Notes: generated from the letters alone by a model not told the origin. A stretch of 62,110 bases of DNA, filler included, from Actinomycetota bacterium (GCA_009886115.1; 4 parts of 4 records of this genome joined end to end with filler, not necessarily neighbours in it); one strand, 5' to 3'; positions 1 through 36,026 are shown, numbered from the whole stretch's first letter. Program-made: numbers and translations.

Positions 1-14
1 CATCCGCGGATCGC

Positions 15-97
15 CGAACGCCCCGCGAACGCCCGCGAACGCCCGCCGAATGCCCGCGAACGCCCCGCGAATGCCCCGCGAATGCCCGGCGAACGCG
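15..97 (+). repeat. Degenerate 10-11 bp tandem repeat (CGAAYGCCC[C]G, about 8 units)
   Basis: Seen directly upstream of the GGDEF-EAL gene; no spacers between units. Confidence 0.85.
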
Positions 98-185
98 TAG
101 CCGTCCGGTCACCGTGCGAGGTATTCCAGGCGCCCCAAGGGGAAAGTATCGATCGACCCTTCCCGGGGTTCTAGGGTGACGAAAG

Positions 186-2552: not shown

Positions 2553-2601
2553 TCGGAGTGGGCGCCGTCGGTTGACTCAAGTCTCCCTGGTTCGGGCCGA
2601 C

Positions 2602-4104
2602 GTGAGTCATGTGCACTGGCGTCCTCCCGCGTGGCTGATCCTGCTGCTGGCTGCTGTGATCTACGGTACGTACCAGCATCGGGCCACCGCGTCCGAGCTC
2701 GGTGTAGCCAAGGAGATCGGTGGCATGGCGGCCTACTGGTCACCGCTCGAGACCGCCGATCCGGTGGCCGGGGGCGCCGTCTTCGATGGCATCGTCGGAT
2801 CGCGGCCCGGGGCCGTCGCTGCGGGGCTCGCCGGCGTCGTCGCCGTGGGTCGGCAGACCGACGGCGACGGAGGCACGGATGCCGCCGTGTGGGCGTCGGT
2901 CGACGGGGCCGCGTGGGCCCGGGTCCCCGATGGCAACGGCGAGCTCGGCGGTCCTGGCAACCAGGACATCCGCGGAATCGCCGCGTGGCCGACCGGGGGA
3001 TCGCAGAGCGGTTTCGTCGCCGTTGGCGTCGACACGCTGGTGACCGGGGTGAGCGCGCCCGCCGACGGTTCCGAGTCGGCCGAGTCGGACGCCGCGATCT
3101 GGGTCTCCGCGACCGGAGTCCATTGGCAGCGCGTCGGCCACGACGTCGACGATCTCGGTGGTCCCGGAGCGCAGGTGATGGAGGCGGTGGCCCCGGCTGG
3201 CGTCGGGATGGTTGCCGTGGGCTGGGCCCGGACCGGGCTCTTCCAGGGCGAGGCCGCGGCGTGGGTGTCGTCCGACGGGCAGGTGTGGCAGCGGATCGAG
3301 TCAGAGGCGTTCGGGGGCCCTGGGGAACGACGCATGCTCGCGGTCACGGCCTTCCCCGACGGCGTGGTGGCCGTGGGCTGGGAAGCGGACACCGATGGTG
3401 TGCACCATCCCGCCGCATGGGTGTCGAACGACGGGACTGCCTGGGCTCGGGCCACGAACGTCGCCGGGTCGATCCCCCTTGCCTCGTTGCCTGCCGGAGC
3501 GAGCATCGACCAGCTTCCGATCGGCGAGCTGCGCTCGGTGATGGTCACGTCGGAACAGATCCTCGCGGCTGGACACATGACCGGGATCGCAGGCGAGCGC
3601 GTGGGCGATATCGACGGTGCGCTGTGGACATCGACCAATGGGATCACGTGGAACGCCATCCTCCCCGTCGAGCGCGGCACCGCCATCTTCGGCGGCCCCG
3701 GGCGGCAGTCACTGGTCGGGGTCGTCGCCGCGCAGACCACCGATGGGCTGCGTTTCGTGGCCGTGGGCGAGACCCAGCGCGTCGAACCCGTGGACGACGG
3801 GCCCGATGACTCCGACGATGCAGCCAGCACCGACGATGCCGGCACCGGTCCTGCCGACGGCAGCTCGATCGGTGCCGCCTACGGTCCACCGGTGTTCGCC
3901 ACGTGGTGGTCGGCCGACGGCAACGTGTGGCGCCCTCAGGGCGTGCTCGGTGTCGGCGACTTCGAGGCGTCGTCGGCGACGGCGTTGATCACGATCGAGG
4001 ACCGGTTCCTCGCGTTGGGGACGGCTGCCGAGCCCGGGGGCGACGCCGAACCGGCCGCCTGGTATCTCAGGCTCGAGCTCGCACGACCCGACCAGCCGGG
4101 TTGA
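2602..4104 (+). CDS. Exported or membrane-anchored protein with six Asp-box-like W-x-S-x-(D/N/T)-G-x-x-W repeats (probable beta-propeller)
   Basis: N-terminal hydrophobic stretch; WASVDGAAW, WVSATGVHW, WVSSDGQVW, WVSNDGTAW, WTSTNGITW, WWSADGNVW. Start uncertain (2572 or 2602). Confidence 0.75.
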   Translation: MSHVHWRPPAWLILLLAAVIYGTYQHRATASELGVAKEIGGMAAYWSPLETADPVAGGAVFDGIVGSRPGAVAAGLAGVVAVGRQTDGDGGTDAAVWASVDGAAWARVPDGNGELGGPGNQDIRGIAAWPTGGSQSGFVAVGVDTLVTGVSAPADGSESAESDAAIWVSATGVHWQRVGHDVDDLGGPGAQVMEAVAPAGVGMVAVGWARTGLFQGEAAAWVSSDGQVWQRIESEAFGGPGERRMLAVTAFPDGVVAVGWEADTDGVHHPAAWVSNDGTAWARATNVAGSIPLASLPAGASIDQLPIGELRSVMVTSEQILAAGHMTGIAGERVGDIDGALWTSTNGITWNAILPVERGTAIFGGPGRQSLVGVVAAQTTDGLRFVAVGETQRVEPVDDGPDDSDDAASTDDAGTGPADGSSIGAAYGPPVFATWWSADGNVWRPQGVLGVGDFEASSATALITIEDRFLALGTAAEPGGDAEPAAWYLRLELARPDQPG

Positions 4105-4170
4105 CGGTCGTCCAGACGGCTCGACCTCCGCCGGTAGTGTGACCCGTTCGCGCTTCGAGGGAAGAGACAC

Positions 4171-5118
4171 ATGGCTCCCAAGCTGTCGGTGTTCGTGACC
4201 GAGGTCCGCGATCCTCGTCGGGCCGTGGTGTCGACGACGGAGGCCGAGGCGCTCGGCTTCCACGGAGCGTGGTTCCCCTCGACGATGGCGTCCGATGCGC
4301 TGACGCTGGCCGCCCTCGCCGCAGCGGCGACCGAACGGATCGGTGTGGGCACGGCTGTCGTGCCGATGCCGACGCGCCATCCGATGGTGCTCGCCCAGCA
4401 GGCGCTGACCGTCCAGGCCGTCGCACGCGGACGCTTCAGCCTCGGGGTGGGAACCGGGCATCCGCTCCTCGTCGCGCAGGCGTACGGCGTGCGCCCGATG
4501 CGTCGACTCGTCGAGGTGCGCGACCACCTCGACGCGCTGCGCAACGCGCTTTCGGGCCCCGACGGCTCCCGAGGCGGCGGTCCGGCGGGGCTGATCATGG
4601 TCGAGCCGAGCCTGCCCGTCGGGCTCGTGGTCGGGGCGCTCTCGCCCCGCCTGGCCGCCCTCGGGGGCGCGCTCGCGAGTGGTGTCGTCACCTGGCTGAC
4701 GCCGGCGTCGTACATCGCCGACATCCTGGTTCCCGCCGTGGCGTCGGGCGCGGAGCGGACCAATGTGATCGCCCCTCCGACGGTGGCCTGTGTCCCGGTG
4801 ATCCTCACCGGGGATCGTGAGCACGCCCGTGCCGCAGCGGAGGCCGAGATCGGTGTGGCGCTGCGCCTCCCGGCGTTCCGGGCCATGCTCGAATCTGCGG
4901 GGGCGATCGGGCGGGGGCAGCCGGCCGACCTCGGGTTCACCGACGTGCTGCTCGACCGGGTCGTGGCCTGGGGAGACCAGGAGCTCCTCGTCTCCCGCCT
5001 CGCCGACTACGCCCGGGCCGGGGTGAGCGAGATCGCCGTCGCTCCCATCGGCGTGGGCTCCGACGCCGACTCCGATCGAGCCCGCACCCGGGCGGCGATC
5101 GCCGAGCTCATCGGGTGA
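4171..5118 (+). CDS. LLM-class (luciferase-like, probably F420-dependent) oxidoreductase
   Basis: AEALGF..AW, ATERIGVGTAVVP..RHP..LAQQA.T, GRFSLGVG motifs. Confidence 0.88.
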   Translation: MAPKLSVFVTEVRDPRRAVVSTTEAEALGFHGAWFPSTMASDALTLAALAAAATERIGVGTAVVPMPTRHPMVLAQQALTVQAVARGRFSLGVGTGHPLLVAQAYGVRPMRRLVEVRDHLDALRNALSGPDGSRGGGPAGLIMVEPSLPVGLVVGALSPRLAALGGALASGVVTWLTPASYIADILVPAVASGAERTNVIAPPTVACVPVILTGDREHARAAAEAEIGVALRLPAFRAMLESAGAIGRGQPADLGFTDVLLDRVVAWGDQELLVSRLADYARAGVSEIAVAPIGVGSDADSDRARTRAAIAELIG

Positions 5119-5170
5119 TCGAACCCGGGACCTGACGCTCGACCGACCTCGCCGCCTCGCCGATCTCGGC

Positions 5171-5220
5171 GGCGTCGAGCGGCGTCGAGCGGCGTCGAGC
5201 GGCGTCGAGCGGCGTCGAGC
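5171..5220 (+). repeat. Perfect tandem repeat (GGCGTCGAGC)x5
   Basis: Seen directly, intergenic. Confidence 0.95.
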
Positions 5221-5506
5221 GGTGGCTGCAGTTCCAGGGGCGCTCCCAGGTCGGTCGTGCTGGGCCGAGCCGTCGACGATCTCGGCTTCAACAGCGGCCT
5301 GGGCGTGGTCGTGCTGGCATTCGGCCGAGCTCCGGGTGCTCGATCTGGGCCTTCCGGCGGTTCCCGACGCGGTTTGCCGGAAACCGGGGAATCTCCTGGC
5401 AGCAGAGTCACCAGAGGCGTTGTACCGTCCGCTCGTCGACCTCATCGACACGCCCCTCACCGGGCGTCGATCCCCACGGACGGGCCCACAGGCGAGCGGG
5501 CAGCGC

Positions 5507-6868
5507 ATGATGAGCAGCGATCAGATGGGTCTGGGCGACGGCGCGCTGGCTGACCACCCGGGTGCGCCACCGTCTCGCGTGCCGGCCTCGGTGGCGATGG
5601 TGTTCCAGCACCTGGCGCACGTCCTCGACTCGTCGGTGCGTTCGTCGCCCAGCGTTCCCGTGCCGATCAGGGAGTTCGCGGCCGAGCACTGCGGCGTCGC
5701 CCCGGGGGAGATGGTGTGTGCGTCGGAAGATCTCTCGGCGCTCACGACCCAGCTCGTGGGTCGGGTGCTGGGTCGGCTCCTGCACGCCCACGAGCACGCG
5801 CCGGCGGGGGTTGCGGTGCGCGGGGTCGACGACAACGATCCACCCCACTGGGAACGGCTCGTGGTCGACGGGCACGTCGAGATGATCCCGTCGTCGATGG
5901 CGGCGGCGTTCCCATCGGGAGCGATCACCGAAGCTCCGGTCGTGCTCGTGCTCGAGGAGCGCTACGGCGACCGCCAGATCTCGGTGTGGTCGGCCCGGGC
6001 TCACGCCGAGCAGGGCTACACGGTGCTCCAGGAGATCCTCGAGCGTGCTCGCACCGTCGACAATCCGTTCCGGGGGAAGGTGCTCGAAGCGACGATCGAG
6101 ATGAACCGGGGCCTCGTGTTCCGGGCTCCGAAGCCGCCGACCGCCGAGCGTCATCGTCTCGTGCTCCCCGATGCGCTCTGGGAGGAGATCGACCTCAACG
6201 TGCACGGCCTCTTCGCCAACCTCGAGCGGCTCCAAGCGGCCGATCTCGGGACCAACCGGGGCCTGCTGCTCGTCGGGCCCCCGGGGACGGGCAAGACCTG
6301 GATCTGCAAGGTGCTCGCGGCCGAGCTCGCCGGCGAGGTGACCGTGGTCTTCTGCTCGGCCCGGGCGGTCACGCACTGCATCGGGCTGATCTACGAGGAG
6401 GTGAAGTGGCTCGCTCCGGCGCTCGTGGTGATCGAGGACATCGATCTCATCGTGCCGAACCGGGCCCACGCCCAGAGCGGCCTGCTCCAGGAGTTCCTGC
6501 TCGCGCTCGACGGGGCGATGACCTCGCACGGCGGGGTCGTCACCGTCGCGACCACGAATGCCGTCGACTCCATCGACGATGCCGCCAAGCGTGCAGCCCG
6601 GTTCGACCGGATCCTCGAGGTGCCCAAGCCCACCGAGGAAGGGCGCCGCAAGATCCTCAAGACGTACCTCGACCCGCTCGGCGCCGGTGTCCGGGCCTCG
6701 GTCGACGTCCAGCGTGTGGCAGCGCTGACCGAAGGCGCGACCGGAGCCGAGCTCAGGGAGCTCGTCCGCCTGGCCGTGCTCCACACCGACGGTGTGGTGA
6801 GCACCGAGATCCTCGTGCGTCTGGCCAACGACGGTGCGGCCTCGACCGCTCCCGGGATGTACCTGTAG
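5507..6868 (+). CDS. AAA+ ATPase
   Basis: Walker A GPPGTGKT, Walker B VVIEDID, SRH ATTN...RAARFDR; ATG 5507 preferred over 5222. Confidence 0.88.
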   Translation: MMSSDQMGLGDGALADHPGAPPSRVPASVAMVFQHLAHVLDSSVRSSPSVPVPIREFAAEHCGVAPGEMVCASEDLSALTTQLVGRVLGRLLHAHEHAPAGVAVRGVDDNDPPHWERLVVDGHVEMIPSSMAAAFPSGAITEAPVVLVLEERYGDRQISVWSARAHAEQGYTVLQEILERARTVDNPFRGKVLEATIEMNRGLVFRAPKPPTAERHRLVLPDALWEEIDLNVHGLFANLERLQAADLGTNRGLLLVGPPGTGKTWICKVLAAELAGEVTVVFCSARAVTHCIGLIYEEVKWLAPALVVIEDIDLIVPNRAHAQSGLLQEFLLALDGAMTSHGGVVTVATTNAVDSIDDAAKRAARFDRILEVPKPTEEGRRKILKTYLDPLGAGVRASVDVQRVAALTEGATGAELRELVRLAVLHTDGVVSTEILVRLANDGAASTAPGMYL

Positions 6869-6987
6869 CCCTGGAGGCGGTGCTCGTCGCCCAGGCCCCC
6901 TGGACGCGGTGCTCGTCGGTCAGGCGCGTCGCGAATGGCCGGTCGGCCATTGCCCGTCGGGCGAGCGTGCCCGCTACCGTCGGCGCC

Positions 6988-7034
6988 ATGTCCGGCGGTG
7001 TGAGCGAACAGGTCGATCTGGTGGTGGTGGGGGC
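6988..7034 (+). CDS. 5' fragment of a probable FAD/NAD(P)-binding oxidoreductase, cut by the contig end
   Basis: MSGGVSEQVDLVVVG resembles the strand before a GxGxxG motif; TACCGT lies 7 nt upstream of the ATG. Confidence 0.5.
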
Positions 7035-7134
7035 NNNNNNNNNNNNNNNNNNNNNNNNNNNNNNNNNNNNNNNNNNNNTTAATTAATTAANNNNNNNNNN
7101 NNNNNNNNNNNNNNNNNNNNNNNNNNNNNNNNNN
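7035..7134. other. Artificial contig linker
   Basis: N-run + TTAATTAATTAA + N-run, 100 nt. Confidence 0.98.
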
Positions 7135-7162
7135 CGCCTGGCGACGATTTCTGCACACAGAT

Positions 7163-7200
7163 GGGGTTGGGGGCTGGGGGTTGGGGGCTGGGGGCTGGGG
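7163..7200 (+). repeat. G-run 7-mer tandem repeat (GGGGG[C/T]T)n
   Basis: Six runs of G4-5 separated by 2-nt loops. Confidence 0.85.
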
Positions 7201-7202
7201 CG

Positions 7203-7646
7203 TCAGGCGACGGGCTGGGGCGTCAGGAGCACCAGGGGGATCGGGCGCTCGGTCCGGGCCTGGTACTTCGTATAGCCCTTGTAGAGGCCCGTGATGCGAG
7301 GCCACCACTCGGCTCGCTCCTCGGCGGTGGCCACGCGGGCCGTGTAGCGCAGGGTGGCGCCTCCGTGCTCGGCCGAGACCGAGGGGTTGGCGACGCAGTT
7401 GTGGAACCAGCCCGGGGAGGCCTCGGCGCCGCCGTTCGACGCCACGATCACGACCCGGCCGTCGCCGAGATCGAGATACATGAGGGGTGAGACGCGCTGG
7501 GCTCCCGACTTGGCTCCGGTGGTGTGCAAGAGCAGCGAGGGCATGCCACTGAACGCCAGCTTGCCCTTGCGCAGTCGGTGCAGCTTGGTGAAGAAGGCGT
7601 TGAATGCTCGTTGGAACCTCGGGTTCTGCGTCCACGTCTTGGCCAT
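7203..7646 (-). CDS. Deazaflavin (F420)-dependent nitroreductase family protein (Ddn-like)
   Basis: LLLHTTGAKSG..R.SPL, IVASNGG...PGWFHN..ANP, Y..YQART.R.IP. Confidence 0.92.
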   Translation of the reverse strand: MAKTWTQNPRFQRAFNAFFTKLHRLRKGKLAFSGMPSLLLHTTGAKSGAQRVSPLMYLDLGDGRVVIVASNGGAEASPGWFHNCVANPSVSAEHGGATLRYTARVATAEERAEWWPRITGLYKGYTKYQARTERPIPLVLLTPQPVA

Positions 7647-7647
7647 A

Positions 7648-9255
7648 TCAGCCGTTCCCTTCCAGCTTCTCGTCGAGCAGGCGATTGAGCACCTGCGGAT
7701 TGCCCTGCCCGGCGAGTGCCTTCATGGCTTCACCCATGAAGAATCCCCGCTTCTTCTTGCGGGCCTTGTCGTCGCCGGCTCGGTACTCGGCCACGGCATC
7801 GGCGTTGGCCGCGAGGATCCCGTCGATCACCGAGCCCAGCGAACTCTCGTCGCTCACCTGGGCCAGGCCCCGATCGGTCACGATTCGAGCTGGCCGTCGA
7901 CCGTCGGCCAGCGCCTCGCCCAACACGTCCTTGGCCTGGTTGCGCGAGATCGTGCCCGCGGCCACGAGCCCCACGAGCTCGGCGAGGGCGGCGGGCGCAA
8001 GGGACAACGCTGCGGGAGACGAGCCGGTTTCGTTGAGGTGACCGGCGATCTCGCCGTTGACCCAGTTGACGATGTCGCGAGGCGACCCGCCCCGGGCCCC
8101 GTCGACCGCGAGAGCCTCCAGCGCCTCCAGCGCCTCCAGCGCCGACACCGCGGCCTCCGCGTAGTCGGCGAGACCAGGCGTACCCAACAACGCCGCCGCG
8201 TCGCGCTCGGTGATGGCCCACGCAGCGACGAGCCGATCGCGCCGGGCCGCCGGCAGCTCGGGCATGGCGGCTCGTACCGCGGCCCGCATCTCGGGCGTGG
8301 GGGCGACGGGCACCAGGTCGGGCTCGGGGAAGTACCGGTAGTCGTAGGCCTCCTCCTTCGAGCGCATCGAGTGGGTCTGACCGTCGTTCTCGTTCCAGTG
8401 ACGGGTCTCCTGCACGACCCGTCCGCCGGCCTCCAGCACCTCGATCTGGCGGGCCCGCTCGTACTCGATCGCTCGCCCCAACGAGCGGATGGAGTTCACG
8501 TTCTTGGTCTCGGTGCGGGTACCGAAGCCGTCGCTGCCCCGACGGCGCACCGACACGTTGGCGTCGACGCGCATCGAGCCCTCCTCCATCTTCACGTCTG
8601 ACACACCGATGGCTTCGAGGGTCGCCCGCAGCTCGGAGGCGTAGGCCTTGGCCTGTTCCGACGATCGGATGTCGGGCTCGCTCACGATCTCGAGCAGCGG
8701 CACGCCGGCCCGGTTGTAGTCGACGAGCGAGAAATCGGCGTCGTGGATGCGTCCGCCGCCGCCGACGTGGGTGGTCTTGCCGGTGTCTTCTTCCATGTGG
8801 GCCCGCGTGATCGTGATGCGCACCCCGTCGACGTCGAGATGGCCGCCCAGGCAGATCGGCTCGTCGTACTGCGAGGTCTGGAAGTTCTTGGGCATGTCGG
8901 GATAGAAGTAGTTCTTCCGGGCGAACACCGACTGCGCCGGCACGTCGAAGTGGAAGGCCTCCCCCACCCGCAGCGCGTACTCGACGACCAACTCGTTGAG
9001 GACGGGCAACGCGCCCGGCAGCCCCAGGCACACCGGGCACACGTTGGTGTTCGGCTCCTGCCCGAACTCGTTGGCACAGCCACAGAAGAGCTTGGTGGCC
9101 GTCGCCAGCTCCACGTGCACCTCGAGGCCGACGACGAGCTCCCAGCCGTCGGCGTGACCGTCGAGACCCACCTCGATGGTGTCGGGCGCGTCGGTTTCGG
9201 AAGGCGTGGTCGGCGCCGACGGGGTCGACGGGGTCGACGGCTCGGGCGGGGTCAT
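7648..9255 (-). CDS. gatB: Asp-tRNA(Asn)/Glu-tRNA(Gln) amidotransferase subunit B
   Basis: [56 protein letters not shown] overlaps the gatA stop. Confidence 0.97.
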
Positions 9256-10787
9256 GCCGGTCCTCCCGGTCGGGCCCTGGCCGCGAACCCGAAGCCCAGC
9301 TCCAGTGCCCGGGCCACCCTGAACATCACGGCCTCGCCGAGCCCCGGAGCCAGCACCTGCACGCCGATCGGCAGCCCCGACCCGTCGAGCCCGGCCGGGA
9401 TCGACATGGCGGCGGCGCCGGCCAGGTTGGTGGGGATGGTGCACACGTCGCTCAGGTACATCGCCAACGGGTCGTCGACCTTGTCGCCCAATGGGAACGC
9501 AGTCGTGGGCGTCGTCGGCGACAGCAGCACGTCGAAGTGCTCGTAGGCCCGGTCGAAGTCGCGGATGATGAGCGTGCGCACCCGCTGGGCCTGCCCGTAG
9601 TAGGCGTCGTAGTACCCCGCCGAGAGGGCGTAGGTGCCGAGCATGATGCGCCGCTTGACCTCGGCCCCGAAACCGGCGTGCCGGGTGGCGCCGTTCATGG
9701 CGGCCGCGTTGGCCGATCCCGGCTCACCGGGCACCACTCGCAGCCCGTAGCGGATGCCGTCGAAGCGGGCGAGGTTCGATGACGCCTCGGCCGGGGCGAT
9801 GAGGTAATAGGCCGGGAGGCCGTAGATGGCCGACGGCACCGACACCGAGTCGAGCGTCGCCCCCGCCTGCTCGAGCAGCTTGACGGCCTGTTCGAGCGCG
9901 GCCGACACCTCAGGCTGGATACCGTCGACCTCGGTGAGCTCGCGCACCACGCCGACCCGCAGGCCCGCCACCCCGCGCTCGAGCCCGGGGAGGATCGGCT
10001 CGCACGGCGTGGGGATCGACGTGCTGTCGGCGGGGTCGTGGCCCCACACCGCTTCGAGGAGCAGCGCGGCGTCCTCGACCGTGCGGGCGAACGGGCCCAC
10101 CTGGTCGAGCGACGAAGCGAAGGCCACGACGCCGTAGCGCGAGACCCGGCCGTAGGTGGGCTTCACGCCGACGACCCCGCACAGCGCGGCGGGTTGACGG
10201 ATCGAGCCGCCGGTGTCGGTTCCCAGCGCCAGCGGTGCGAACCCGGCTGCGACCGCGGCGGCCGAGCCCCCCGACGAGCCTCCAGGCACCCGCCCGAGGT
10301 CCCACGGGTTGTGCGTGGGACCGAACGCCGAGTTCTCGGTCGAGCTGCCCATGGCGAACTCGTCCATGTTGGCCTTGCCCACGGCGATGGCTCCGCTGGC
10401 TTCGAGGCGGGCCACGACGGTGGCGTCGTACGGCGGCAGCCATCCCTCGAGGATGCGCGACCCGCACGTGGTGGGCACGCCCCGGGTGCACAGCACGTCC
10501 TTCACGGCCACCGGGACGCCGGCCAGGGGCGGCAGCGACTCGGGACCGTCGCTCCTGCGCTGGGCGTCGAGCGCGTCGGCCCGGGCCCGAGCGCCATCGG
10601 CGGTCACGTGGAGGAAGGCGTGCACCGAACCGTCGAGCGCCTCGATGCGGGCCAGGTGGGCGTCGACGACCTCACGGGCCGACACCTCGCCCGAGCGGAC
10701 GGCCGCCGCCAACCCGGCCGCCGAGCGTGACGTGAGATCGCGGTCGCGGTCGTGGTCGCGGTCGTGGTCGCTGTCGCTGGAGCTCAC
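9252..10787 (-). CDS. gatA: Glu-tRNA(Gln) amidotransferase subunit A
   Basis: Amidase signature [48 protein letters not shown] overlaps the gatC stop. Confidence 0.97.
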
Positions 10788-28542: not shown

Positions 28543-28651
28543 CTTGCTAGCCCCACAAACACGGACAACCTGCAGGTCAGAGGCACCGAGTTGTCGAGCA
28601 GCATCGCATCGGACGGACAGGATCGCCGGTGTCTGCGAGCACAGCGCTCGG

Positions 28652-28664
28652 ACAACTGATTACT
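28652..28664 (+). repeat. 13-bp direct repeat ACAACTGATTACT (second copy 30492-30504), candidate arm-type site of module 1
   Basis: Identical copies, each 65-95 bp inside an att core and each preceded by GGTGTYTGCG. Confidence 0.6.
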
Positions 28665-28822
28665 CCTCATTTCGGACGTGTGGTTGCATCGCCTCCCGCT
28701 CGCTTCGGGTTCGATCCTCCGCCTCGCCGAGTCCTGGCGGCGGAGCCTCGAGGCGTCCAACTGGTCAGCTGTGATCGGCGTGAGATGTGCGACTGTGAAG
28801 CGGTCGCACTCGGCGCCGTGGG

Positions 28823-30004
28823 TCATTGGCTGCGTTGCGCGTCGGGGATGGTTCGTTTCAGGAACTCGTCGAAGAGGGGCACGGTGAATGCGGTATCGCC
28901 GTGTGCTGGGCTGTAGATCATGCCCTTGATGATGAGGCCGGACCGTCGCGGTGCGACCGACTCCACCCGGAGGCGTAGCGCAGCTGCGATGTCACCCGAT
29001 CGGTGCGGACCCGGACCGAGTTCGGCCATGGCCCGTAGGTACTCCCGCTCCTTCGGCGTCAGCCGGTCGAGTCGGACCAGGAAGAAGTTGCGATCGAGTT
29101 GGTCGATGACGAACGGCCGGGCGGCCCGTACGTCGTCGAGCGTGATCGGGGTCGTGCTGGCGAGGTTCCAGACGTGGAAGCCCCACTCCTGGAGGAAGTA
29201 CGGGTAACCCTTGGACTCCGAGACGATGAGCTCGACGGCTGCTCGCTCGAACGTCACCTCGAGGTTGTGCGCGGGGATCTCGATGGCGGCGGCCGCGTCG
29301 CTGGAGCCGAGTGATCCGATCACCGGGAAGTCGAACAGTCGCTCGGCGTACGACTTAGCGTCGCCGGCGAGCCCGGGAAGCTGTGGCAGGCCAGCGCCGA
29401 CGAGCACGATTGGTAGGTTGCGCTGTGTCGTGCGGTGGATGGCGGTGATGAGGGCGGCGAGCTCGTCTGCGGCGAGGTACTGCACTTCGTCTATGGCGAG
29501 GAGCATGCCGGTGCTGTCTTCGGCGGCGGCTTCTCCGATTGTGACGAGCAGGTCCGTGAGGTCCTCGCTGAGCAGACCTGAGTCGGCGAGGCCGGCTTCG
29601 GGTTCGACGCCGATCGAGATTGCGCTGCCGTCGGGGAGTTGGCAGCTGAACGAGCGGAGCGCACCGAGCGCTCGGGCGATGAGGCGTCGGGCGGGTCCAC
29701 TGGTATTGAGTGCCAGCAGGACCTTGCGCAGTCGAATGGCGAGCAGCATCTGGAAGTCGCCGGTCTCCGGCGCTTCGATGAAAGCGACCTGCATGCCTTG
29801 GCGTTCGGCCACCTCGGCGAACCGGTTGAGTAGCACGGTCTTGCCGACGCCGCGTAGGCCGATCGGCATGTAGCTCTTGCCCGGGCGGTTGTCGAGCGCC
29901 CGACGAATCGTCACATCGAACCGGTCGATGAGATCGTCACGTCCGAGAAGTGCCGGCGGTGTCGTACCGGCCCCCGGGCGGTAGGGGTTGTCGAACCGGT
30001 CCAT
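28823..30004 (-). CDS. AAA_16-like P-loop ATPase with probable C-terminal winged HTH
   Basis: NPYRPGAG..P..L.GR, GLRGVGKT, LAIDEVQ, GYPYFLQ, R..LI.KGMIY. Confidence 0.9.
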   Translation of the reverse strand: MDRFDNPYRPGAGTTPPALLGRDDLIDRFDVTIRRALDNRPGKSYMPIGLRGVGKTVLLNRFAEVAERQGMQVAFIEAPETGDFQMLLAIRLRKVLLALNTSGPARRLIARALGALRSFSCQLPDGSAISIGVEPEAGLADSGLLSEDLTDLLVTIGEAAAEDSTGMLLAIDEVQYLAADELAALITAIHRTTQRNLPIVLVGAGLPQLPGLAGDAKSYAERLFDFPVIGSLGSSDAAAAIEIPAHNLEVTFERAAVELIVSESKGYPYFLQEWGFHVWNLASTTPITLDDVRAARPFVIDQLDRNFFLVRLDRLTPKEREYLRAMAELGPGPHRSGDIAAALRLRVESVAPRRSGLIIKGMIYSPAHGDTAFTVPLFDEFLKRTIPDAQRSQ

Positions 30005-30569
30005 GTTGAACGATCTTATCTGATCTTATGTCTCTTATTCAACAGCTGGCTAAGAAATGTCAAGGCTCCCGAACCAGGCGCGGGCTGCGAACGAGATCGG
30101 GGTCGAGCCCGATCCTGTCGGAACGATTCCGATCCAGGATCGGTGAAGCGACTCGCTATGTGAGTTGCGCGGAGGTCACGATGCCGCTGTGCCCCCCTCC
30201 CCGGGGGGAGGAGCTCGGCTCGTTGGTGTCGCCGTTCGAGTGGCAGGCGACCGTCGGCGTCTCTTTCGCTGGGTCGATCCTGCGTGGGTGGTCGTCGTGG
30301 GCCAGGTTGGCTTCTTCGACCAGTTCCCACGGTGCTGATGAGCCGATACTCACAGTGCGTGGCGATCGACTCGACGGGTTGTTTCGATGAGAGGCTCCTC
30401 TGGCGGGCGGAGGCGGATCGGGAGGCACTTCGGGTCGGCGGGCCAGTAGGATGGTGGCGTCGCCGTAGCCGTACTTGGAAGGTGTTTGCGTACAACTGAT
30501 TACTTTACCCTCGACGCTCGACCCCGAGCAGGGAATACGCTGGTGAGTACAGCGTGAGGGGTCTGATAG

Positions 30570-30612
30570 CTGATAAGGATGAGGTCGCAAGTTCGATTCT
30601 TGCTAGCCCCAC
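30570..30612 (+). repeat. tRNA-Ile(GAU) 3'-half duplicate (att core)
   Basis: CTGATAA loop, GGATG, AGGTC, GCAAG-TTCGATT-CTTGC T-arm, TAGCCCC-A; no D-arm or 5' acceptor strand upstream. Confidence 0.88.
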
Positions 30613-30681
30613 CCAGCATTTCCGCAGGTCAGAGTATATTTCCGAGGTGTCTCGGAGACCGTCGGGAAGGGCCTGAAACGG

Positions 30682-30710
30682 GTGTCGTGCCACAAGCGTG
30701 CCACTACGAA
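30682..30710 (+). repeat. 29-bp direct repeat GTGTCGTGCCACAAGCGTGCCACTACGAA (second copy 35199-35227), candidate arm-type site of module 2
   Basis: Identical copies with internal CGTGCCAC at 11-bp period; extra inverted copy at 35228-35236. Confidence 0.8.
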
Positions 30711-30742
30711 ACCGGGGGGCACTCGACGTGTGGACAGGCAAC

Positions 30743-31642
30743 ATGCCGACGTACGGGGAGTTGATGTTGCCAGTTCTTCGGGCGGTCGTCGCGCTTGGTG
30801 GTTCGGGGAGTAGTCGGGAGATCACGGATCAAGTGGTACGAGACCAGAGCTTCTCGGAGGAGATGCTCACGGTCTGCTATCCGACCGGCAAGGAGAAGTC
30901 GGTGTTGCTCGACCGCCTCGACTGGGCTCGCTCCTACTGCAAGCTCGGTGACATTCTGGAGAGCCCGAAACGTGGCCTGTTTTTGGTCACCGATACAGGC
31001 CGAGAGCTGTCTGAGCTGCCGGACGACCGGGCTGTCGAGGCGCTCAAGGAGATCGATCGGGAGGTTCGGCATCAGCGTGGGCGAACAGCCCCAGGCGGCT
31101 CAGAGACGATTCCTGAGATCGTCGGCGGAGATCAGCCCGCCCTCGCGGCGGTCGATGAGGAAGATGACGATGGTGCGTGGCGACGCCAGCTCCTTGAACG
31201 GCTCCATCAGCTCTCGCCTGCCGCGTTCGAGCGGTTCACCCTATATCTGCTCCGGGCGTACGGGATGGAGCTGCGCCGGCAAGGCGGCCCAGGCGACGAG
31301 GGCATCGACGGAATAGGTACGGCACCGCTCACTGATGTGCTGACGACCACGGTCGCAGTGCAAGCGAAACGCTACGAGCCGGGGGGGACCATCGGACGAG
31401 AGATCGTTGCTCTCTTCCAGAGCGACGCGACGGCGGCCGGCGCCGAACATGGTGTCCTCGTGACCACGGCGCGCTTCTCCGAGCCCGCCAGGAAGGCAGC
31501 TCTGGGAAGGACGCCAACGATTGATCTGATCGACGGTGACCGATTGGCTGACCTGTGTCTGCGCCAAGAGGTCGGTGTCGTCACCCGACCGGTGGTGCGG
31601 CACGAGTGGTTCAACCGGTTCGAGGACGAACGCGATCGATAG
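30743..31642 (+). CDS. mrr: Mrr-family type IV restriction endonuclease
   Basis: Mrr_N (MPTY.ELM.PVL...R..WARSY...LES.KRG) and Mrr_cat (FE.....LL...G, GDEGIDG, VQAKRY, G.LVTT..F, LIDG..L). Confidence 0.93.
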   Translation: MPTYGELMLPVLRAVVALGGSGSSREITDQVVRDQSFSEEMLTVCYPTGKEKSVLLDRLDWARSYCKLGDILESPKRGLFLVTDTGRELSELPDDRAVEALKEIDREVRHQRGRTAPGGSETIPEIVGGDQPALAAVDEEDDDGAWRRQLLERLHQLSPAAFERFTLYLLRAYGMELRRQGGPGDEGIDGIGTAPLTDVLTTTVAVQAKRYEPGGTIGREIVALFQSDATAAGAEHGVLVTTARFSEPARKAALGRTPTIDLIDGDRLADLCLRQEVGVVTRPVVRHEWFNRFEDERDR

Positions 31643-31870
31643 GGGACTGGCCAGTTGCTCCGGTCGGGCTCGCTTCCGACAGGCGTGACACCCTCAGACA
31701 GACCGCCTCCCGGTCGAGACGACAGCGCCGACACTCCGATGCCCGGCCATCCACCGCTGCGCTCCGCCGGTGAAACTCCTCAAGCGGAAGCACTGGACAT
31801 CGAGAGAGGCCCTCATCTGGCCGACCCCTGGTGCCCGCAGCACCAGGGAATTCCGTGACCGTTGACATGC

Positions 31871-32029
31871 GATCTCCCACCGATCGAGATCGTGCACGTC
31901 CACCCGGCTGCGGTGCTCGATGCCGTGGCCGACGCGCTGCGTCCGCTCGGAGTGACGATCGCCGAGACGCACCTCTCGCCGAGCCGGGTCCGCGAGTTGG
32001 TGGAGGCTGCTGCGTGCCCGCCTCGGTGA
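31871..32029 (+). pseudogene. Possible C-terminal relic of a xanthine/CO dehydrogenase molybdopterin subunit
   Basis: Own translation DLPPIEIVH-VHPAAVLDAVADALRPLGVTIAETHLSPSRVRELV resembles CoxL/XdhA C-termini; no start codon. Confidence 0.55.
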
Positions 32030-33472
32030 TCAGCGGGTCGCTCGTGAGTCTGCGCCGTCCTGACGGAGACGGGCGGCGACGAGCAGCCAGCAGCCGCTGC
32101 CGGCGACGAGGAGACCCAAGAGCATGGCGACGGTCAAGTTGCGACCGGTGAACGCCAACCCGCCGCCCGCAGCGTTGCTCTCGTCGACGCTGAGGGCGAC
32201 GGTCACCGGTGTGGAGCCGGCGACGGTGACCGTGCGTGCTTTTGAGAGTTCGCCGGTGGCCGGGTCCTCGCCGACGCACTGGTAGCTGCCGTGCGGGAGG
32301 TTCTCGGCGGCGAACCCGCCGTCTGCGCCTGAGTAGACCGTCAACGACGTGTCATCGCCGGTGCCTCGGGTCCCGTCGATGCCACCCCACGTGCAGGTGA
32401 CGACGGCACCGGCGACAACCGCGGCGGTGTCCTGGTCGCGCACGACACCCACGATGGTGCCGTCGCCTCGAGCGGCGAAGTCGGCGACGGCCGTCCCGCC
32501 GGTGACGACCACGACGACATGCCAGTCGACGACCGTGTCGCTGTCCCACGTGAGTACCACGTCGGTGCTCGGCGTGTACGCCACAACCTCGTAGGTCCCG
32601 CTCGTCACGTTCGTGAACAAGAACGACCCGTCGGCGCCCGTCGTGGTCGACGCGATGCCGAGCACGACGGTGACGCCAGCGAGCGGCAACTCTTCGGCGT
32701 CGCGCACCGAGTCACCATCGCTGTCGATCCAGACGTGGCCCTCGACCCGGCCCGGCGCCTCCCCGGCTCCGCCGCCTGAGCCGCTCGATCCGGCCGTCGT
32801 CGAGGTGGTCCCGGTCGATGAGCCGGAGCCTGTTCCTCCGGTCGCGCCGGAACCGGCCGTTGTGGATGTCGTGGACATCGCGGTGGTCGTAGTTGTCGAG
32901 GTCGAGAAGCTCGGCGAGGATCCCGTCGGGTTCGAGAACGACCCGATCGCGGCGAGGAGCGTAGCGTCTTCCTCGGCTCCCTGGTCATCGAGGTCGGCCA
33001 GGATCGATGAGGTCGACTCGCCGGCGGCCACCTCGGTGTTGAAGAACTGCTGGGCGGACATCGCCCCGCAGGTCCCGGCGTAGGAGGTCCCACCCACGCT
33101 CGTGCCGTTGAAGATGGCCTGGCCGACGGTGGTCCAGTTCTGGCCCGAGCCGTGGCCGTCCGATGCCGCGTCGGGGATGACATCACCCCAGTTCTTGGCG
33201 TTGGGTGGGTAGGCGAACGACGGGTCGAACGGCGATCCCGCGTGATGGCTGTGATCGTTGCCGCCCGACCCGTTCACCGCCGACACGCTGACCGTGATCC
33301 GTCGGTACGGGTTCGTCGTCGAGTGTGTCCTGTGACAGATCGTGATACGGCTGGGTGCCGCCTCGGCGGGTGAAGGGCTCTGTACGAGGATGGCGCTTGC
33401 TGCAACGAGCATGAGGCCGGTCAGACAGCGGAACATGCGGGCGCGGCGGGCGCGGGGCGAAATGGGGTTCAT
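32030..33472 (-). CDS. Secreted, probably sortase-anchored surface protein with SdrD-B-like domain
   Basis: Signal peptide (..PAEA), CHRTHSTTNPY domain, S/T/G linker, GHVWIDSDGD..RD.EE.PLAGVTV, LAFTG + TM + basic tail. Confidence 0.82.
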   Translation of the reverse strand: MNPISPRARRARMFRCLTGLMLVAASAILVQSPSPAEAAPSRITICHRTHSTTNPYRRITVSVSAVNGSGGNDHSHHAGSPFDPSFAYPPNAKNWGDVIPDAASDGHGSGQNWTTVGQAIFNGTSVGGTSYAGTCGAMSAQQFFNTEVAAGESTSSILADLDDQGAEEDATLLAAIGSFSNPTGSSPSFSTSTTTTTAMSTTSTTAGSGATGGTGSGSSTGTTSTTAGSSGSGGGAGEAPGRVEGHVWIDSDGDSVRDAEELPLAGVTVVLGIASTTTGADGSFLFTNVTSGTYEVVAYTPSTDVVLTWDSDTVVDWHVVVVVTGGTAVADFAARGDGTIVGVVRDQDTAAVVAGAVVTCTWGGIDGTRGTGDDTSLTVYSGADGGFAAENLPHGSYQCVGEDPATGELSKARTVTVAGSTPVTVALSVDESNAAGGGLAFTGRNLTVAMLLGLLVAGSGCWLLVAARLRQDGADSRATR

Positions 33473-33539
33473 GGGAGGGCGTGTCGGCACCGCCGGCGAT
33501 CTCGATAGGTCTCGGGCGAGTTCTTCGAGACCACCGGGC

Positions 33540-33788
33540 CGATGACCGTTCGATGAGGTCGGGTCATCGTCGAACAGATCGGACAGTTTCAGCCCGAGCG
33601 CCGTAACGACGGCATCCGCCGAGCACCCGGCGCGACAGAACACGAGCGCCCTCCGTCGAGCCCCTCGGTCACGTCGAGTGATGGGTTCTGGTCGTCGTGC
33701 CCCGGGCACGCCTCCGCGAGCCCTCCTGGCGACCGCCACACCCGGCGGCGTCGAGGGCCTGCTTGAGCCGCTCCGTCGCGCCGCTCAC
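33540..33788 (-). pseudogene. Frameshifted primase zinc-binding domain relic
   Basis: CPGHDDQNPSLDV in one frame, LVFCRAGCSADAVVTALGL..SDLF in another; no TOPRIM or helicase follows. Confidence 0.75.
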
Positions 33789-33957
33789 GCCAACGCTCCG
33801 GGCTCGGGGTCGGCACCGGTCGCGCGTAGCCATATGCGACACGCCACCCACGGGCAACGCCACTGGTCGAGCGCCTGGAGCCGGCGCTCGCAGCGGCCAC
33901 AACCTGCGACCCCCCCAACCACAACGGCGCGCCCACCCGTGTGAGCGCCATACGCCG

Positions 33958-34179
33958 TCATCGCCCCGACTTGAGGCCAGGTACCCCGACCGGTTCGACG
34001 ACGGCCGCGTCAAGTAGCGCTTCGAGGTCGGCCACGTCGAACCGGATCGACCGGCCGACCTTGTAGAACCGGACGCGCCGCTCGGCGACGAGACGCCGCA
34101 GGTGTCGTTCGGACCGAGCGATGAGGGCTGCTGCTTCACCGATCGAGACGAGGTCTCGTCGGGCTGGAGTTCCGGCCAT
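33958..34179 (-). CDS. Excisionase-family HTH_17 protein
   Basis: SI.EAAALI..SER.LRRLVAERRV.FYKVGRSIRFD..DL; AGGAGG RBS. Confidence 0.9.
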   Translation of the reverse strand: MAGTPARRDLVSIGEAAALIARSERHLRRLVAERRVRFYKVGRSIRFDVADLEALLDAAVVEPVGVPGLKSGR

Positions 34180-34260
34180 GGGTGGCCTCCTTCGATGTCA
34201 GGTGGAGCCAACCGTGGACTCCGAAGCACTTGCGGACAACCCTGGTACGATGACTATCCG

Positions 34261-35148
34261 ATGACGCAGCCGGCAGACTTGAAGCTCGCGACGGAACTGG
34301 CCGGGATGCACGCGCCGTCGGGTCAGTTGACACGCCGGGTCGGCGCCACCCTCTGGCCCCGGCCGGCCCGCGTGTGGATCGACGGAGATCGGTTGTGCTC
34401 GGACCCGGGTCCTGGCGGTGTCGTCACCGTCGACGACACCGATCGGCTGCTCGAGCGTTTCCTCCGGCTGGCCGACTCGGACGAGCAGGAAATCGTGACG
34501 TTCGCGGCCCAGCTCGGCGTGCTCGGGATCTGTGCGCACGGCCTCCCGAGCACCCATGCAGCCCTGGCGGTGACCTTCCCCGATCGTGAGGGATGCAACC
34601 CGATCGGATGGCCGAGCCCCTACGAGCCGGTCCTGTACTGGCGGAGCCTCGCCCGGCAAGCCAAGGCGATCCTCCGGTGGGCGGGGCTGCTTCACCGGGG
34701 CCTCCCCGTCGACGACGAGATTCGGCTCACGGCCGCGCGTCTCGTGAACGAGACGATTCCGGACTTCGGAGGGCAGATCCTGATCCGTATGGAGGATGCC
34801 GACTTGCTCGTCGTCCACCTCGAAGATGCCGAGCCCACGTCAGAACAAGATCGGGTGCAGCTCGGGTGGCTCGTCGACCAGTGGCTCAGGATCGGCGACG
34901 TGCGACTCGCGTTCTCGTTTGCCGGCTCGAAGGGCACACTCCGCTTCGAGCCGGGTGGGCTCTTCGGCTCCGTGGCCACACACGTCGCGCTGGCCGTCGC
35001 CCGATCCGCAGGGATCGCGTTCTGCGCGAGTTGCACCCAAGCGTTCCCGCCCAGGCGGTCGACGCAGAAGTACTGCTCCCGCTGTGGCGACAGGGCCCGG
35101 ATGCGCGACGCCCAGCGAGCACGCAGGGCCCGCCGGCGTAGCGGTTGA
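34261..35148 (+). CDS. CGNR-zinc-finger-like putative regulator
   Basis: C-terminal CASC..F......KYCSRCGDRARMR..R; divergent from xis. Confidence 0.7.
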   Translation: MTQPADLKLATELAGMHAPSGQLTRRVGATLWPRPARVWIDGDRLCSDPGPGGVVTVDDTDRLLERFLRLADSDEQEIVTFAAQLGVLGICAHGLPSTHAALAVTFPDREGCNPIGWPSPYEPVLYWRSLARQAKAILRWAGLLHRGLPVDDEIRLTAARLVNETIPDFGGQILIRMEDADLLVVHLEDAEPTSEQDRVQLGWLVDQWLRIGDVRLAFSFAGSKGTLRFEPGGLFGSVATHVALAVARSAGIAFCASCTQAFPPRRSTQKYCSRCGDRARMRDAQRARRARRRSG

Positions 35149-35326
35149 GGCGAGCCAGTGAAGAGCCCGCAAGCGACCTACGTGCTTGGGTCATGCAAGT
35201 GTCGTGCCACAAGCGTGCCACTACGAAGTGGCACGAGGGGTAAATCATGGTCGCTCATGGTCAGACGGAAATGGTGTCTGACCAGGAGATTGACCGTATC
35301 TCCGCAGGTGGCGGAACCGGCCCTCG

Positions 35327-35377
35327 CATCCCTGATAAGGAGGATGAGGTCGCAAGTTCGATTCTTGCTAGCCCCAC
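35327..35377 (+). repeat. tRNA-Ile(GAU) anticodon arm + 3' half (att core) with a 3-nt GGA insertion
   Basis: CATCC-CTGATAA-[GGA]-GGATG, then identical to the 30570 copy. Confidence 0.88.
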
Positions 35378-35391
35378 AAACACGGACAACC

Positions 35392-35491: not shown

Positions 35492-35591
35492 AGCGGGCCC
35501 ACGCCTCGCGTCCGTCACGCTCGCGCTCCTCGCGCTCGGCGGCGGGATGCTCGGAACGGGCTTCGCGCTCGTGGCGCACGCCGTCTTCCCT

Positions 35592-35638
35592 TCGGACTTC
35601 TCATCCGAAGGTCGCAGGTTCGAATCCTGCCGGGGGCG
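35592..35638 (+). repeat. tRNA-Arg(UCU) 3'-half fragment (att-like scar)
   Basis: TCGGA-CTTCTCA-TCCGA anticodon arm, AGGTC, GCAGG-TTCGAAT-CCTGC, CGGGGGC-G; 5' half absent. Confidence 0.85.
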
Positions 35639-36026
35639 CGTGGTGTTCTTCCGGGCGCGTCGGCGAGCCTCGTGGTTGCGCCAGGTGATGAGCGAGAGCT
35701 CGCGTTCGGCGCGGCGTTCCTCTCGCTCGAAGCGCTCGCGTTGCTGCATGGACTCGACGGCGGCGACGAGTGATCGTTGTGCCGACTCGGCATCGCGCTC
35801 GGCCTGCGCAGCGACGACGGCGAGCCGCTCCAGCCAACGCGTGCGGGCGTACGTCGAATCTTCGTGCAGCGCCGCGTCGGCGAGCTTCTTGACCGCGGCA
35901 TCCACGTACGACCGTCGTCAGACGGTTGCGCTGGCGCAATCGGCAAGTCTGTGCGGCTCATTTCAAAGGATTCGGAGGGCACGGCGTTGAGGTGCGTCGC
36001 GGCGTTCGGGTGCGGGTCGGACGTGA

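Follow-up and report, generated by a model that had tools for sequence, protein, structure and literature searches.

Here we describe a 6,849-bp contig from the actinobacterial genome GCA_009886115.1 that carries two 3′ halves of a tRNA-Ile(GAU) gene. Its sequence divides at these halves into a unit of 4,765 bp with five coding features, which extends from core to core (module 2), and a unit of 2,056 bp with a single gene, which forms the remainder of the cycle into which the contig closes (module 1). The whole stretch of DNA analysed (62,110 nucleotides; hereafter the window) consists of four contigs linked by 100-nt joiners, each made up of an N run, TTAATTAATTAA and a further N run, and the two modules fill exactly one of these contigs (28543..35391; Table 1). 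Because this is a separate contig between N linkers, the neighbouring window sequence does not represent its genomic context. A preliminary description of this DNA had taken the flanking window as context and has to be corrected on this point, as the neighbours are unrelated contigs behind such linkers. The G+C content of the analysed contig is 66.3%, compared with 69.7–71.0% in the other three. For genome scans the practical point is that N runs around TTAATTAATTAA mark contig joins, and that findings spanning or bordering them are without real genomic context.

The two tRNA halves (termed fragB and fragA) have 37 exact bases in common and match the intact tRNA-Ile(GAU) genes of relatives up to the discriminator base; the core of the attachment (att) site is the tRNA 3′ end. 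ARAGORN detected no intact tRNA-Ile in the 62-kb window, reporting tRNA-Arg only, on the next contig, and an Rfam scan of the contig gave sub-threshold matches only, on the tRNA fragments. The repeats named in the preliminary description are all present: the 13-mer ACAACTGATTACT at 28652 and 30492, a 29-mer (GTGTCGTGCCACAAGCGTGCCACTACGAA) at 30682 and 35199, and GCAGGTCAGAG at 28572 and 30624. The 29-mer, a repeat far beyond chance, is made up of two tandem copies of CGTGCCAC with a period of 11. CGTGCCAC occurs five times in the 62-kb window, each time inside one of the two arms of module 2. The signal of the 13-mer is weaker, and the contig contains four other exact 13-mers, all of them GC-rich. 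The first and last 28 bases of the contig are identical, and the contig therefore closes into a cycle of 6,821 bp. This cycle may be a circular composite of both units, a tandem duplication or a loop in the assembly graph; as read from the contig, a real circle or a tandem array may underlie it.

Table 1 Features of the analysed contig, its joiners, and integrase-less segments in related loci.
Feature	Position or size	Strand	Remarks
Artificial linker, first/second contig	7035-7134		N + TTAATTAATTAA + N
Artificial contig joiner	28443..28542	.	N + TTAATTAATTAA + N; left limit of analysed contig
Contig start, 28 bases	28543..28570	+	Same as contig end 35364-35391; tRNA-fragment tail plus 15 nt of ATPase segment
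GCAGGTCAGAG, att-flank motif	28572..28582	+	Left end of ATPase segment
13-mer ACAACTGATTACT, right-hand (P′-side) copy	28652..28664	+	95 nt past tRNA end; candidate arm site of module-1 att site
AAA_16/AAA_22 ATP-binding protein, 393 amino acids	28823..30004	-	Only gene of module 1; Pfam
Non-coding region upstream of ATPase gene	30005..30358	.	AT-rich inverted repeat at about 30006-30050; conserved with L020 to about 30358
Segment A, left arm of att site	30436..30569	+	88% identity to L020:4-181 including core; holds left 13-mer, 30492-30504
fragB, tRNA-Ile(GAU) 3′ half	30570..30611	+	Anticodon loop to discriminator base; attL-type junction of module 2
GCAGGTCAGAG, att-flank motif	30624..30634	+	Left end of module 2
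Left 29-mer, CGTGCCAC twice	30682..30710	+	70 nt past tRNA end; candidate P′ arm-type sites
Mrr_N + Mrr_cat protein	30743..31642	+	Pfam; PADLOC: type IV methyl-directed restriction enzyme; cargo
Probable secreted protein, 480 amino acids from ATG at 33472	32030..33472	-	SdrD_B / CarboxypepD_reg domains; cargo
Decayed gene, Cys/His zinc-finger motif across three reading frames	33473..33957	-	Partial DNA primase profile match
Excisionase-family helix-turn-helix protein, 73 amino acids	33958..34179	-	HTH_17, TIGR01764, PHROG excisionase
295-amino-acid protein, C-terminal Cys4 zinc ribbon, basic tail	34261..35148	+	Unnamed family
Right 29-mer, CGTGCCAC twice, then inverted copy 35228-35235	35199..35235	+	Ends 89 nt before fragA; candidate P arm-type sites
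fragA, tRNA-Ile 3′ part	35325..35376	+	Anticodon stem to discriminator base; attR-type junction of module 2; 15 nt of ATPase segment behind
Artificial contig joiner	35392..35491	.	N + TTAATTAATTAA + N; right limit of analysed contig
L064 integrase-less segment	1.2 kb		Two small open reading frames
L027 integrase-less segments	1.6 kb and 7.6 kb		One esterase gene in the 1.6-kb segment
L056 integrase-less segment	3.7 kb		ISL3 transposase and LuxR-type regulator

A scan of the genome collection with a 20-nt tRNA core yielded at least 121 loci, almost all of them from Acidimicrobiia (given L numbers here). Among the loci listed, L020 is the only one similar to the window beyond the tRNA. L020:4-181 matches window 30436-30613, that is, the left flank of fragB and the core, with 88% identity over 178 nt, and L020:167-1916 matches window 28543-30345, which holds the core tail, the right flank of fragA and the ATPase gene, with 90.5% identity over 1,807 nt. 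In L020 both matching stretches adjoin unbroken around a single tRNA fragment. Compared with L020, the window contains an additional 4,765 bases exactly at the core, and the core is duplicated; the left core copy keeps the upstream flank of the target and the right copy keeps its downstream flank. Site-specific integration would account for this pattern, and so would precise excision in the L020 lineage. As L020 has the ATPase segment and a single tRNA fragment without module 2, we regard module 2 as a discrete site-specific insertion, lying between the 37-nt exact repeats of fragB and fragA with attL and attR flanks of the kind left by such integration. The pair of loci thus provides a clean before-and-after case, from an uncultured actinobacterial lineage, of how an integrase-less element enters an att site. 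Past the ATPase gene and about 350 nt of its upstream region, near 30358, the L020 sequence departs from that of the window and continues with ordinary genes, for an Abhydrolase_10 protein and a branched-chain amino-acid permease; no second att core was found in L020 (positions 1-10,179).

The same comparison bears on module 1. In L020 the 13-mer lies 100 nt before and 116 nt after the 20-nt core, around one fragment, and the same spacings are found in the window when counted across the end-to-end join of the contig. Because L020 has both copies around a single core, the 13-mers look less like the outer limits of a cassette than like the two arms of one att site, which module 2 would have entered; if the unit were a 2-kb circle, both descriptions would amount to the same thing. 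At its left end the ATPase segment begins with CAGGTCAGAGGCAC, and the same 14 bases occur in L015 and L075, with a variant (CAGTTCAGAGGCAC) in L066; in L066 and L075 an integrase gene adjoins the tRNA. Since this left end is common to the L015, L075 and L066 elements, the ATPase segment, too, is DNA of the element type. That module 1 forms a closed mobile cassette is not established.

The ATPase encoded by module 1 is 96% identical to its L020 counterpart at the protein level. A word-seeded search gave at least 8,000 matches, a number equal to that of the candidates it scored, and the best 120 of these show 70–85% identity; named relatives among these 120 come from Chloroflexota, Acidobacteriota and Actinomycetota, and DNA similarity extends to plasmids of Pseudomonadota. 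Such high conservation points to frequent horizontal transfer. When the contig was compared with plasmids, the ATPase gene alone matched, on 15 plasmids, and in the three records opened it was solitary and in unrelated contexts; the whole contig had no match among phages. No solved relative of the ATPase was found by sequence, and its label in the protein atlas is just 'putative ATP-binding protein'.

The loci retrieved with the core show how elements at this tRNA are organized. Enough flank was available for 124 cores, of which 102 belong to intact tRNA-Ile genes and 22 to fragments, and several contigs hold more than one core (three in L027; two each in L055/L056, L064 and L117+L019). In many genomes a gene begins directly after the tRNA (flank starting CCATGAAA), which has the look of an unoccupied site. 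Another group of loci has a GGTCAGAG-like motif 10–16 nt past the tRNA end; 21 of the 124 cores have it no more than 35 nt away from that end, as against 2 of 402 control windows. GCAGGTCAGAG, which the preliminary description had noted behind both cores as a feature of the two cassettes, is indeed present there but is not private to them, and is part of this family-wide att-flank motif.

Integrase genes were located by two routes. Pfam was applied to the two nearest filtered open reading frames (ORFs) within 4 kb downstream at 58 loci (107 ORFs; those longer than 900 amino acids or failing a codon-position GC filter were left out) and identified Phage_integrase in six loci (L023, L025, L029, L052, L066 and L075). 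A profile built from nine local integrases identified them in ten elements (L006, L012, L019/L117, L023, L025, L029, L052, L065, L066 and L075). When the left ends are aligned, the order is consistent: the tRNA end, the GGTCAGAG-like motif, and then a tandem pair of words at about +56 to +74. These tandem words are 7–11 nt long with a period of 11–13 and are often followed by an inverted copy; in L012, L023, L025 and L052 the integrase start codon lies directly behind them. The words themselves are element-specific: TCCCAACA in L012, L023 and L025, GGCCAACA in L052, CGCCACC in L065 and L086, GGGGTGCAAC in L117, GGGGACCAAC in L079 and CGTGCCAC in module 2. A tandem word of at least 8 nt with a period of 11–13 at +40 to +110 is present at 16 of 80 cores and in 6 of 480 control windows (p = 2.8e-10), and the 29-mer is module 2's version of the family tandem word. 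Beyond the motif, the left ends in the window share only 29–42% DNA identity with those of other elements, and there is therefore no close parent among the loci listed.

The arrangement in both arms can be followed in one integrase-bearing relative. L117 and L019 overlap on one contig and together give a complete element of 10.1 kb, which runs from an intact tRNA-Ile to a fragment and has its integrase gene at the right end. Its word, GGGGTGCA(A), is present in two copies in the left arm (+59) and two in the right arm, where they sit between the integrase start and the tRNA fragment; six other right arms contain none. Module 2 has the same layout, with CGTGCCAC twice in the left arm and, in the right arm, twice in direct and once in inverted orientation, again with no copy in six other right arms. 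In both elements the words are distinct from the core and element-specific. From position and by analogy, we infer that the tandem words are integrase arm-type sites. The arm-type repeats proposed in the preliminary description thereby gain support for the 29-mer, which stands where integrase-bearing relatives carry tandem words, L117+L019 doing so in both arms; they are less well matched by module 1, with its single words. Its observation that the two modules carry different repeats on the same tRNA core is also borne out, and fits different integrase specificities.

Integrase-less segments bounded by tRNA-Ile cores, 1.2–7.6 kb in size, are present in three relatives (L027, L056 and L064), which supports the preliminary description on this point. 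Words of the TCCCAAC type are found in their arms, with as many as three in the L064 right arm, and this is the word of the integrase-bearing L012, L023 and L025 elements. With these three loci, presumably helper-dependent units at tRNA-Ile are recurrent in the lineage. The comparison as a whole yields a set of natural att sites with one tRNA-Ile core and differing arm words, some with an adjoining integrase gene, which could serve to study how the arm-binding specificity of an integrase and its DNA word change in step.

In module 2, the start codon of the Mrr protein lies 32 nt past the left word pair, which is the position of the integrase start in relatives, and this protein alone scores well with PADLOC on the contig; defence cargo, here an Mrr-type restriction enzyme, could travel on helper-dependent units. 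The 480-amino-acid protein has an N-terminal hydrophobic leader, as judged by eye. A piece of the zinc-finger remnant matches positions 43-78 of the 772-position PHROG DNA primase model (E = 9.7e-5), and Pfam gave no match on this remnant (33473..33957). Because only these positions of the profile are matched, we regard the gene as the remnant of a truncated primase. The excisionase-like protein scores 38.9 bits against TIGR01764 (cut-off 28.8) and has an E-value of 3.9e-9 with the PHROG excisionase. Decay of module 2 is suggested by the combination of a kept excisionase and a primase reduced to a truncated, frameshifted stump.

The 295-amino-acid protein was initially taken for an orphan, with three matches in a word-based search, but a full scan overturned this and gave a family of 2,304 representatives (885 at E ≤ 1e-10) with invariant Cys residues. 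No copy of this family was found in the fetched tRNA-Ile loci, including the integrase-bearing ones, in plasmids or in phages. Its predicted fold is confident (predicted local distance difference test 83.5; predicted template modelling (TM) score 0.81). A structure search of this model against the PDB and viral models was uninformative (best PDB E 0.2, TM < 0.2; Cre E 1.4), and the modelled protein is without resemblance to a recombinase. A weak structural match to DUF1470 (E = 0.6) was also recorded, and the C-terminus is what we take to be loosely like a CGNR-type zinc finger.

No integrase could be assigned to this DNA. Pfam found no Phage_integrase, Resolvase or transfer family among the ORFs of the contig and no integrase among 37 ORFs of the other window contigs; tblastn on the contig with seven tyrosine integrases and one serine recombinase returned nothing real; and the local integrase profile that finds integrases in ten elements elsewhere reached a best E-value of 0.54 on the contig. 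One tblastn match, of an 'integrase' ORF from L052 to 30579-30791, was rejected, as that ORF call begins inside the tRNA and the match is tRNA/att DNA rather than an integrase remnant. Conjugation or mobilisation genes, or remnants of them, were not seen in module 2, and no intact parent element was found. The module-2 sequence has no match in any of the at least 121 loci, and comparison of its proteins and those of the L020 neighbours with all loci revealed no common synteny.

We favour, with a probability of roughly 0.65, the reading that module 2 is a decayed integrative element of tRNA-Ile and module 1 an ATPase gene with the arms of an att site, together on one self-closing contig. Module 2 would have inserted into a tRNA-Ile 3′ fragment already in place, through site-specific recombination of the tyrosine-integrase type, duplicating the core. 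It would have kept both att junctions, a tandem CGTGCCAC pair in each arm and the excisionase-like gene, and would have lost its integrase and most of its primase. For any further move it would depend on a matching integrase provided in trans, as for cis-mobilizable elements (CIMEs), and it is by analogy with these that such an integrase is presumed to act. Module 1 would be a lone, widely transferred ATPase gene together with the two arms, one 13-mer in each, of the att site that module 2 entered. A circular composite of the two would arise by excision across the two outer cores of the tandem, or by recombination between two att sites. Module 2 in this reading fits a decayed, CIME-like element, which is a known kind of element, found here in little-studied soil and water actinobacteria.

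Several observations weigh against this reading. In a de novo test for tandem words, four of the seven bounded segments gave only weak words of 6 nt that lack a clear counterpart in the right arm of the same segment, L027 10001-17596 gave no tandem word, and clean results were confined to module 2 and L117+L019. The longest words shared between arms measure 10 nt in L064 and 11 nt in L117+L019, and mismatched controls reach 12; in L117+L019, what counts is that the shared word is the tandem word, not its length. An integrase-bearing element with CGTGCCAC arms, for which the preliminary description had suggested searching at tRNA-Ile cores, was not found, the tandem pattern being present in none of the at least 121 loci. 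L020 is the only relative that shows the site without module 2, and there the ATPase segment is continuous with ordinary genes. Module 1 has a single word in each arm instead of a tandem pair, and fragA has a 3-nt insertion in its anticodon-stem part. Finally, the cycle could be an assembly product and the tandem words could serve another DNA-binding protein as operators, and these two points lead to the alternatives.

It is quite possible, if short of probable, that the contig derives from a linear chromosomal array without any circle, in the order arm A, fragB, module 2, fragA, ATPase segment and chromosome. Closure of the contig would then come from the assembly graph, through collapsed att repeats, or from a tandem duplication. 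The passage of the L020 ATPase segment into the Abhydrolase_10 and permease genes agrees with such an array, and 37-nt repeats within a contig can tangle an assembly graph; a terminal overlap of 28 nt is unusual for assemblers, as 28 nt is not a common final k-mer overlap. The contig shows no break, however, at the internal core or at the junction near 30358, and its end overlap includes 15 nt beyond the tRNA part, behind fragA, that agree with the L020 flank. At the other extreme, the 6.8-kb cycle would be a real circular molecule, a composite of two integrase-less units released jointly, and Acidimicrobiia would possess a tRNA-Ile cassette system in which arm words on one core address different integrases acting in trans. 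We consider this doubtful; if it were true, the arm words would be an address code that decides which helper integrase moves which small cargo unit. That the cycle is a small autonomous plasmid, with the ATPase as initiator and the AT-rich inverted repeat upstream of its gene (about 30006-30050) as origin, is very improbable. The contig is cyclic and the N-terminus of the ATPase weakly matches the Orc1/Cdc6 model, but at 19.7 bits this match is far below the cut-off of 181, Pfam and NCBIfam show no replication-initiator family on the contig, and the ATPase gene is a solitary cargo gene in unrelated contexts on plasmids and is linked to ordinary genes in L020.

The preliminary description had proposed two independent closed cassettes, each with its own arm repeats and moved by its own integrase, in an integron-like array. 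The different repeats on one core and the integrase-less, tRNA-bounded segments of relatives suit this proposal, and so does module 2, for which L020 supplies the site before insertion; the segment of module 1, by contrast, has one core in L020, flanked by the 13-mers, and continues into ordinary genes. Small units that hold one to a few genes, have no recombinase of their own and are stacked at a single recombination site do recall integrons. The likeness fails on every defining feature tested: neither the contig nor the 37 ORFs tested from the other contigs hold an IntI-type integrase, attI is absent, and each boundary is a direct copy of the tRNA-Ile 3′ half with long arms instead of an attC hairpin formed by imperfect inverted repeats. 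Two independent cassettes are thus somewhat unlikely. A reading of the tandem words as operators for a regulator, either the excisionase-like helix-turn-helix protein or the zinc-ribbon protein, draws on the position of the words directly upstream of the integrase start in relatives, a natural place for an operator, and on the two candidate DNA-binding proteins encoded by module 2. We hold it to be unlikely: in L117+L019 and module 2 the words occur in both arms, also in the arm without an adjoining integrase gene, and such pairs would therefore fit arm-type sites better than an integrase operator; moreover, the zinc-ribbon family is absent from all fetched integrase-bearing loci. As for the 13-mer of module 1, a functionless chance repeat could be argued from the four other exact 13-mers in the contig, from its single copy per arm and from its conservation in L020, which is expected anyway at 88–90% identity. 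Allowing up to two mismatches, however, the window contains these two sites only (shuffle mean 0.08 matches; 2 of 100 shuffles reach two), none of 42 mismatched left/right arm pairs of other elements shares 13 bases or more (maximum 12), L020 has the same spacing to the core, and the word is AT-rich in a contig of 66% GC, which together make chance distinctly unlikely.

Known systems place the decayed-element reading in context. The lambda-type attP of heterobivalent tyrosine integrases consists of a core and arm-type sites, with int beside the P′ arm. Module 2 resembles it in having its core in the tRNA 3′ end and element-specific tandem direct repeats about 60–100 nt out in both arms, and in its relatives the arm words directly adjoin the integrase gene; it differs in being without an integrase, and binding of its words by one is presumed. 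CIMEs and tandem accretion have been described for ICESt1/ICESt3-type elements of Streptococcus thermophilus, in which an accreted composite can be excised as one circle (PMC5704250). Module 2 and the cyclic contig fit the description of CIMEs and accretion, the best-fitting known concept: module 2 lies between attL and attR and is without integrase and transfer genes. The present case differs in its uncultured Acidimicrobiia host and tRNA-Ile target, in that no conjugation genes or remnants were seen, in the absence of an integrase-bearing partner from the array, and in that its mobility is a prediction. In the tycheposon arrays of Prochlorococcus, successive elements occupy one tRNA with partial tRNA copies between them, and degenerated remnants, extra partial tRNAs, tandem-repeat junctions and circles have been detected (10.1101/2020.12.28.424599). 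Partial tRNA copies flanking tandem elements at a tRNA are found here as well. The elements screened for in that study carry an integrase (10.1101/2020.12.28.424599), whereas the contig has no recombinase and a primase stump only; the lineages and integrases are unrelated as far as tested.

Further observations concern other loci and the remaining contigs of the window. L010 has a large serine recombinase gene (76-1620; Resolvase, Recombinase and Zn_ribbon_recom) just to the left of a tRNA-Ile fragment (2141-2160) with an esterase gene behind it, and the 1.6-kb segment of L027 (cores at 780 and 2406, stored coordinates) is the same kind of esterase unit; a second type of recombinase may act at tRNA-Ile. 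Within the window, a tRNA-Arg(TCT) gene (35565-35639, plus strand) is situated 74 nt from the start of the fourth contig, which may have broken beside another tRNA-linked variable region; Pfam detected no integrase in the tested nearby ORFs. The same contig carries, at 36993-61218 on the plus strand, about nine head-to-tail paralogous genes for proteins of about 880–1,200 amino acids in which an AAA_22, NB-ARC or nSTAND1 NTPase region comes after an N-terminal adenylate/guanylate cyclase domain, that is, a tandem array of cyclase-STAND proteins. On the second contig (21765-25047, minus strand), adjoining T2SSE- and T2SSF-type genes suggest a Tad/type IV pilus-like cluster.

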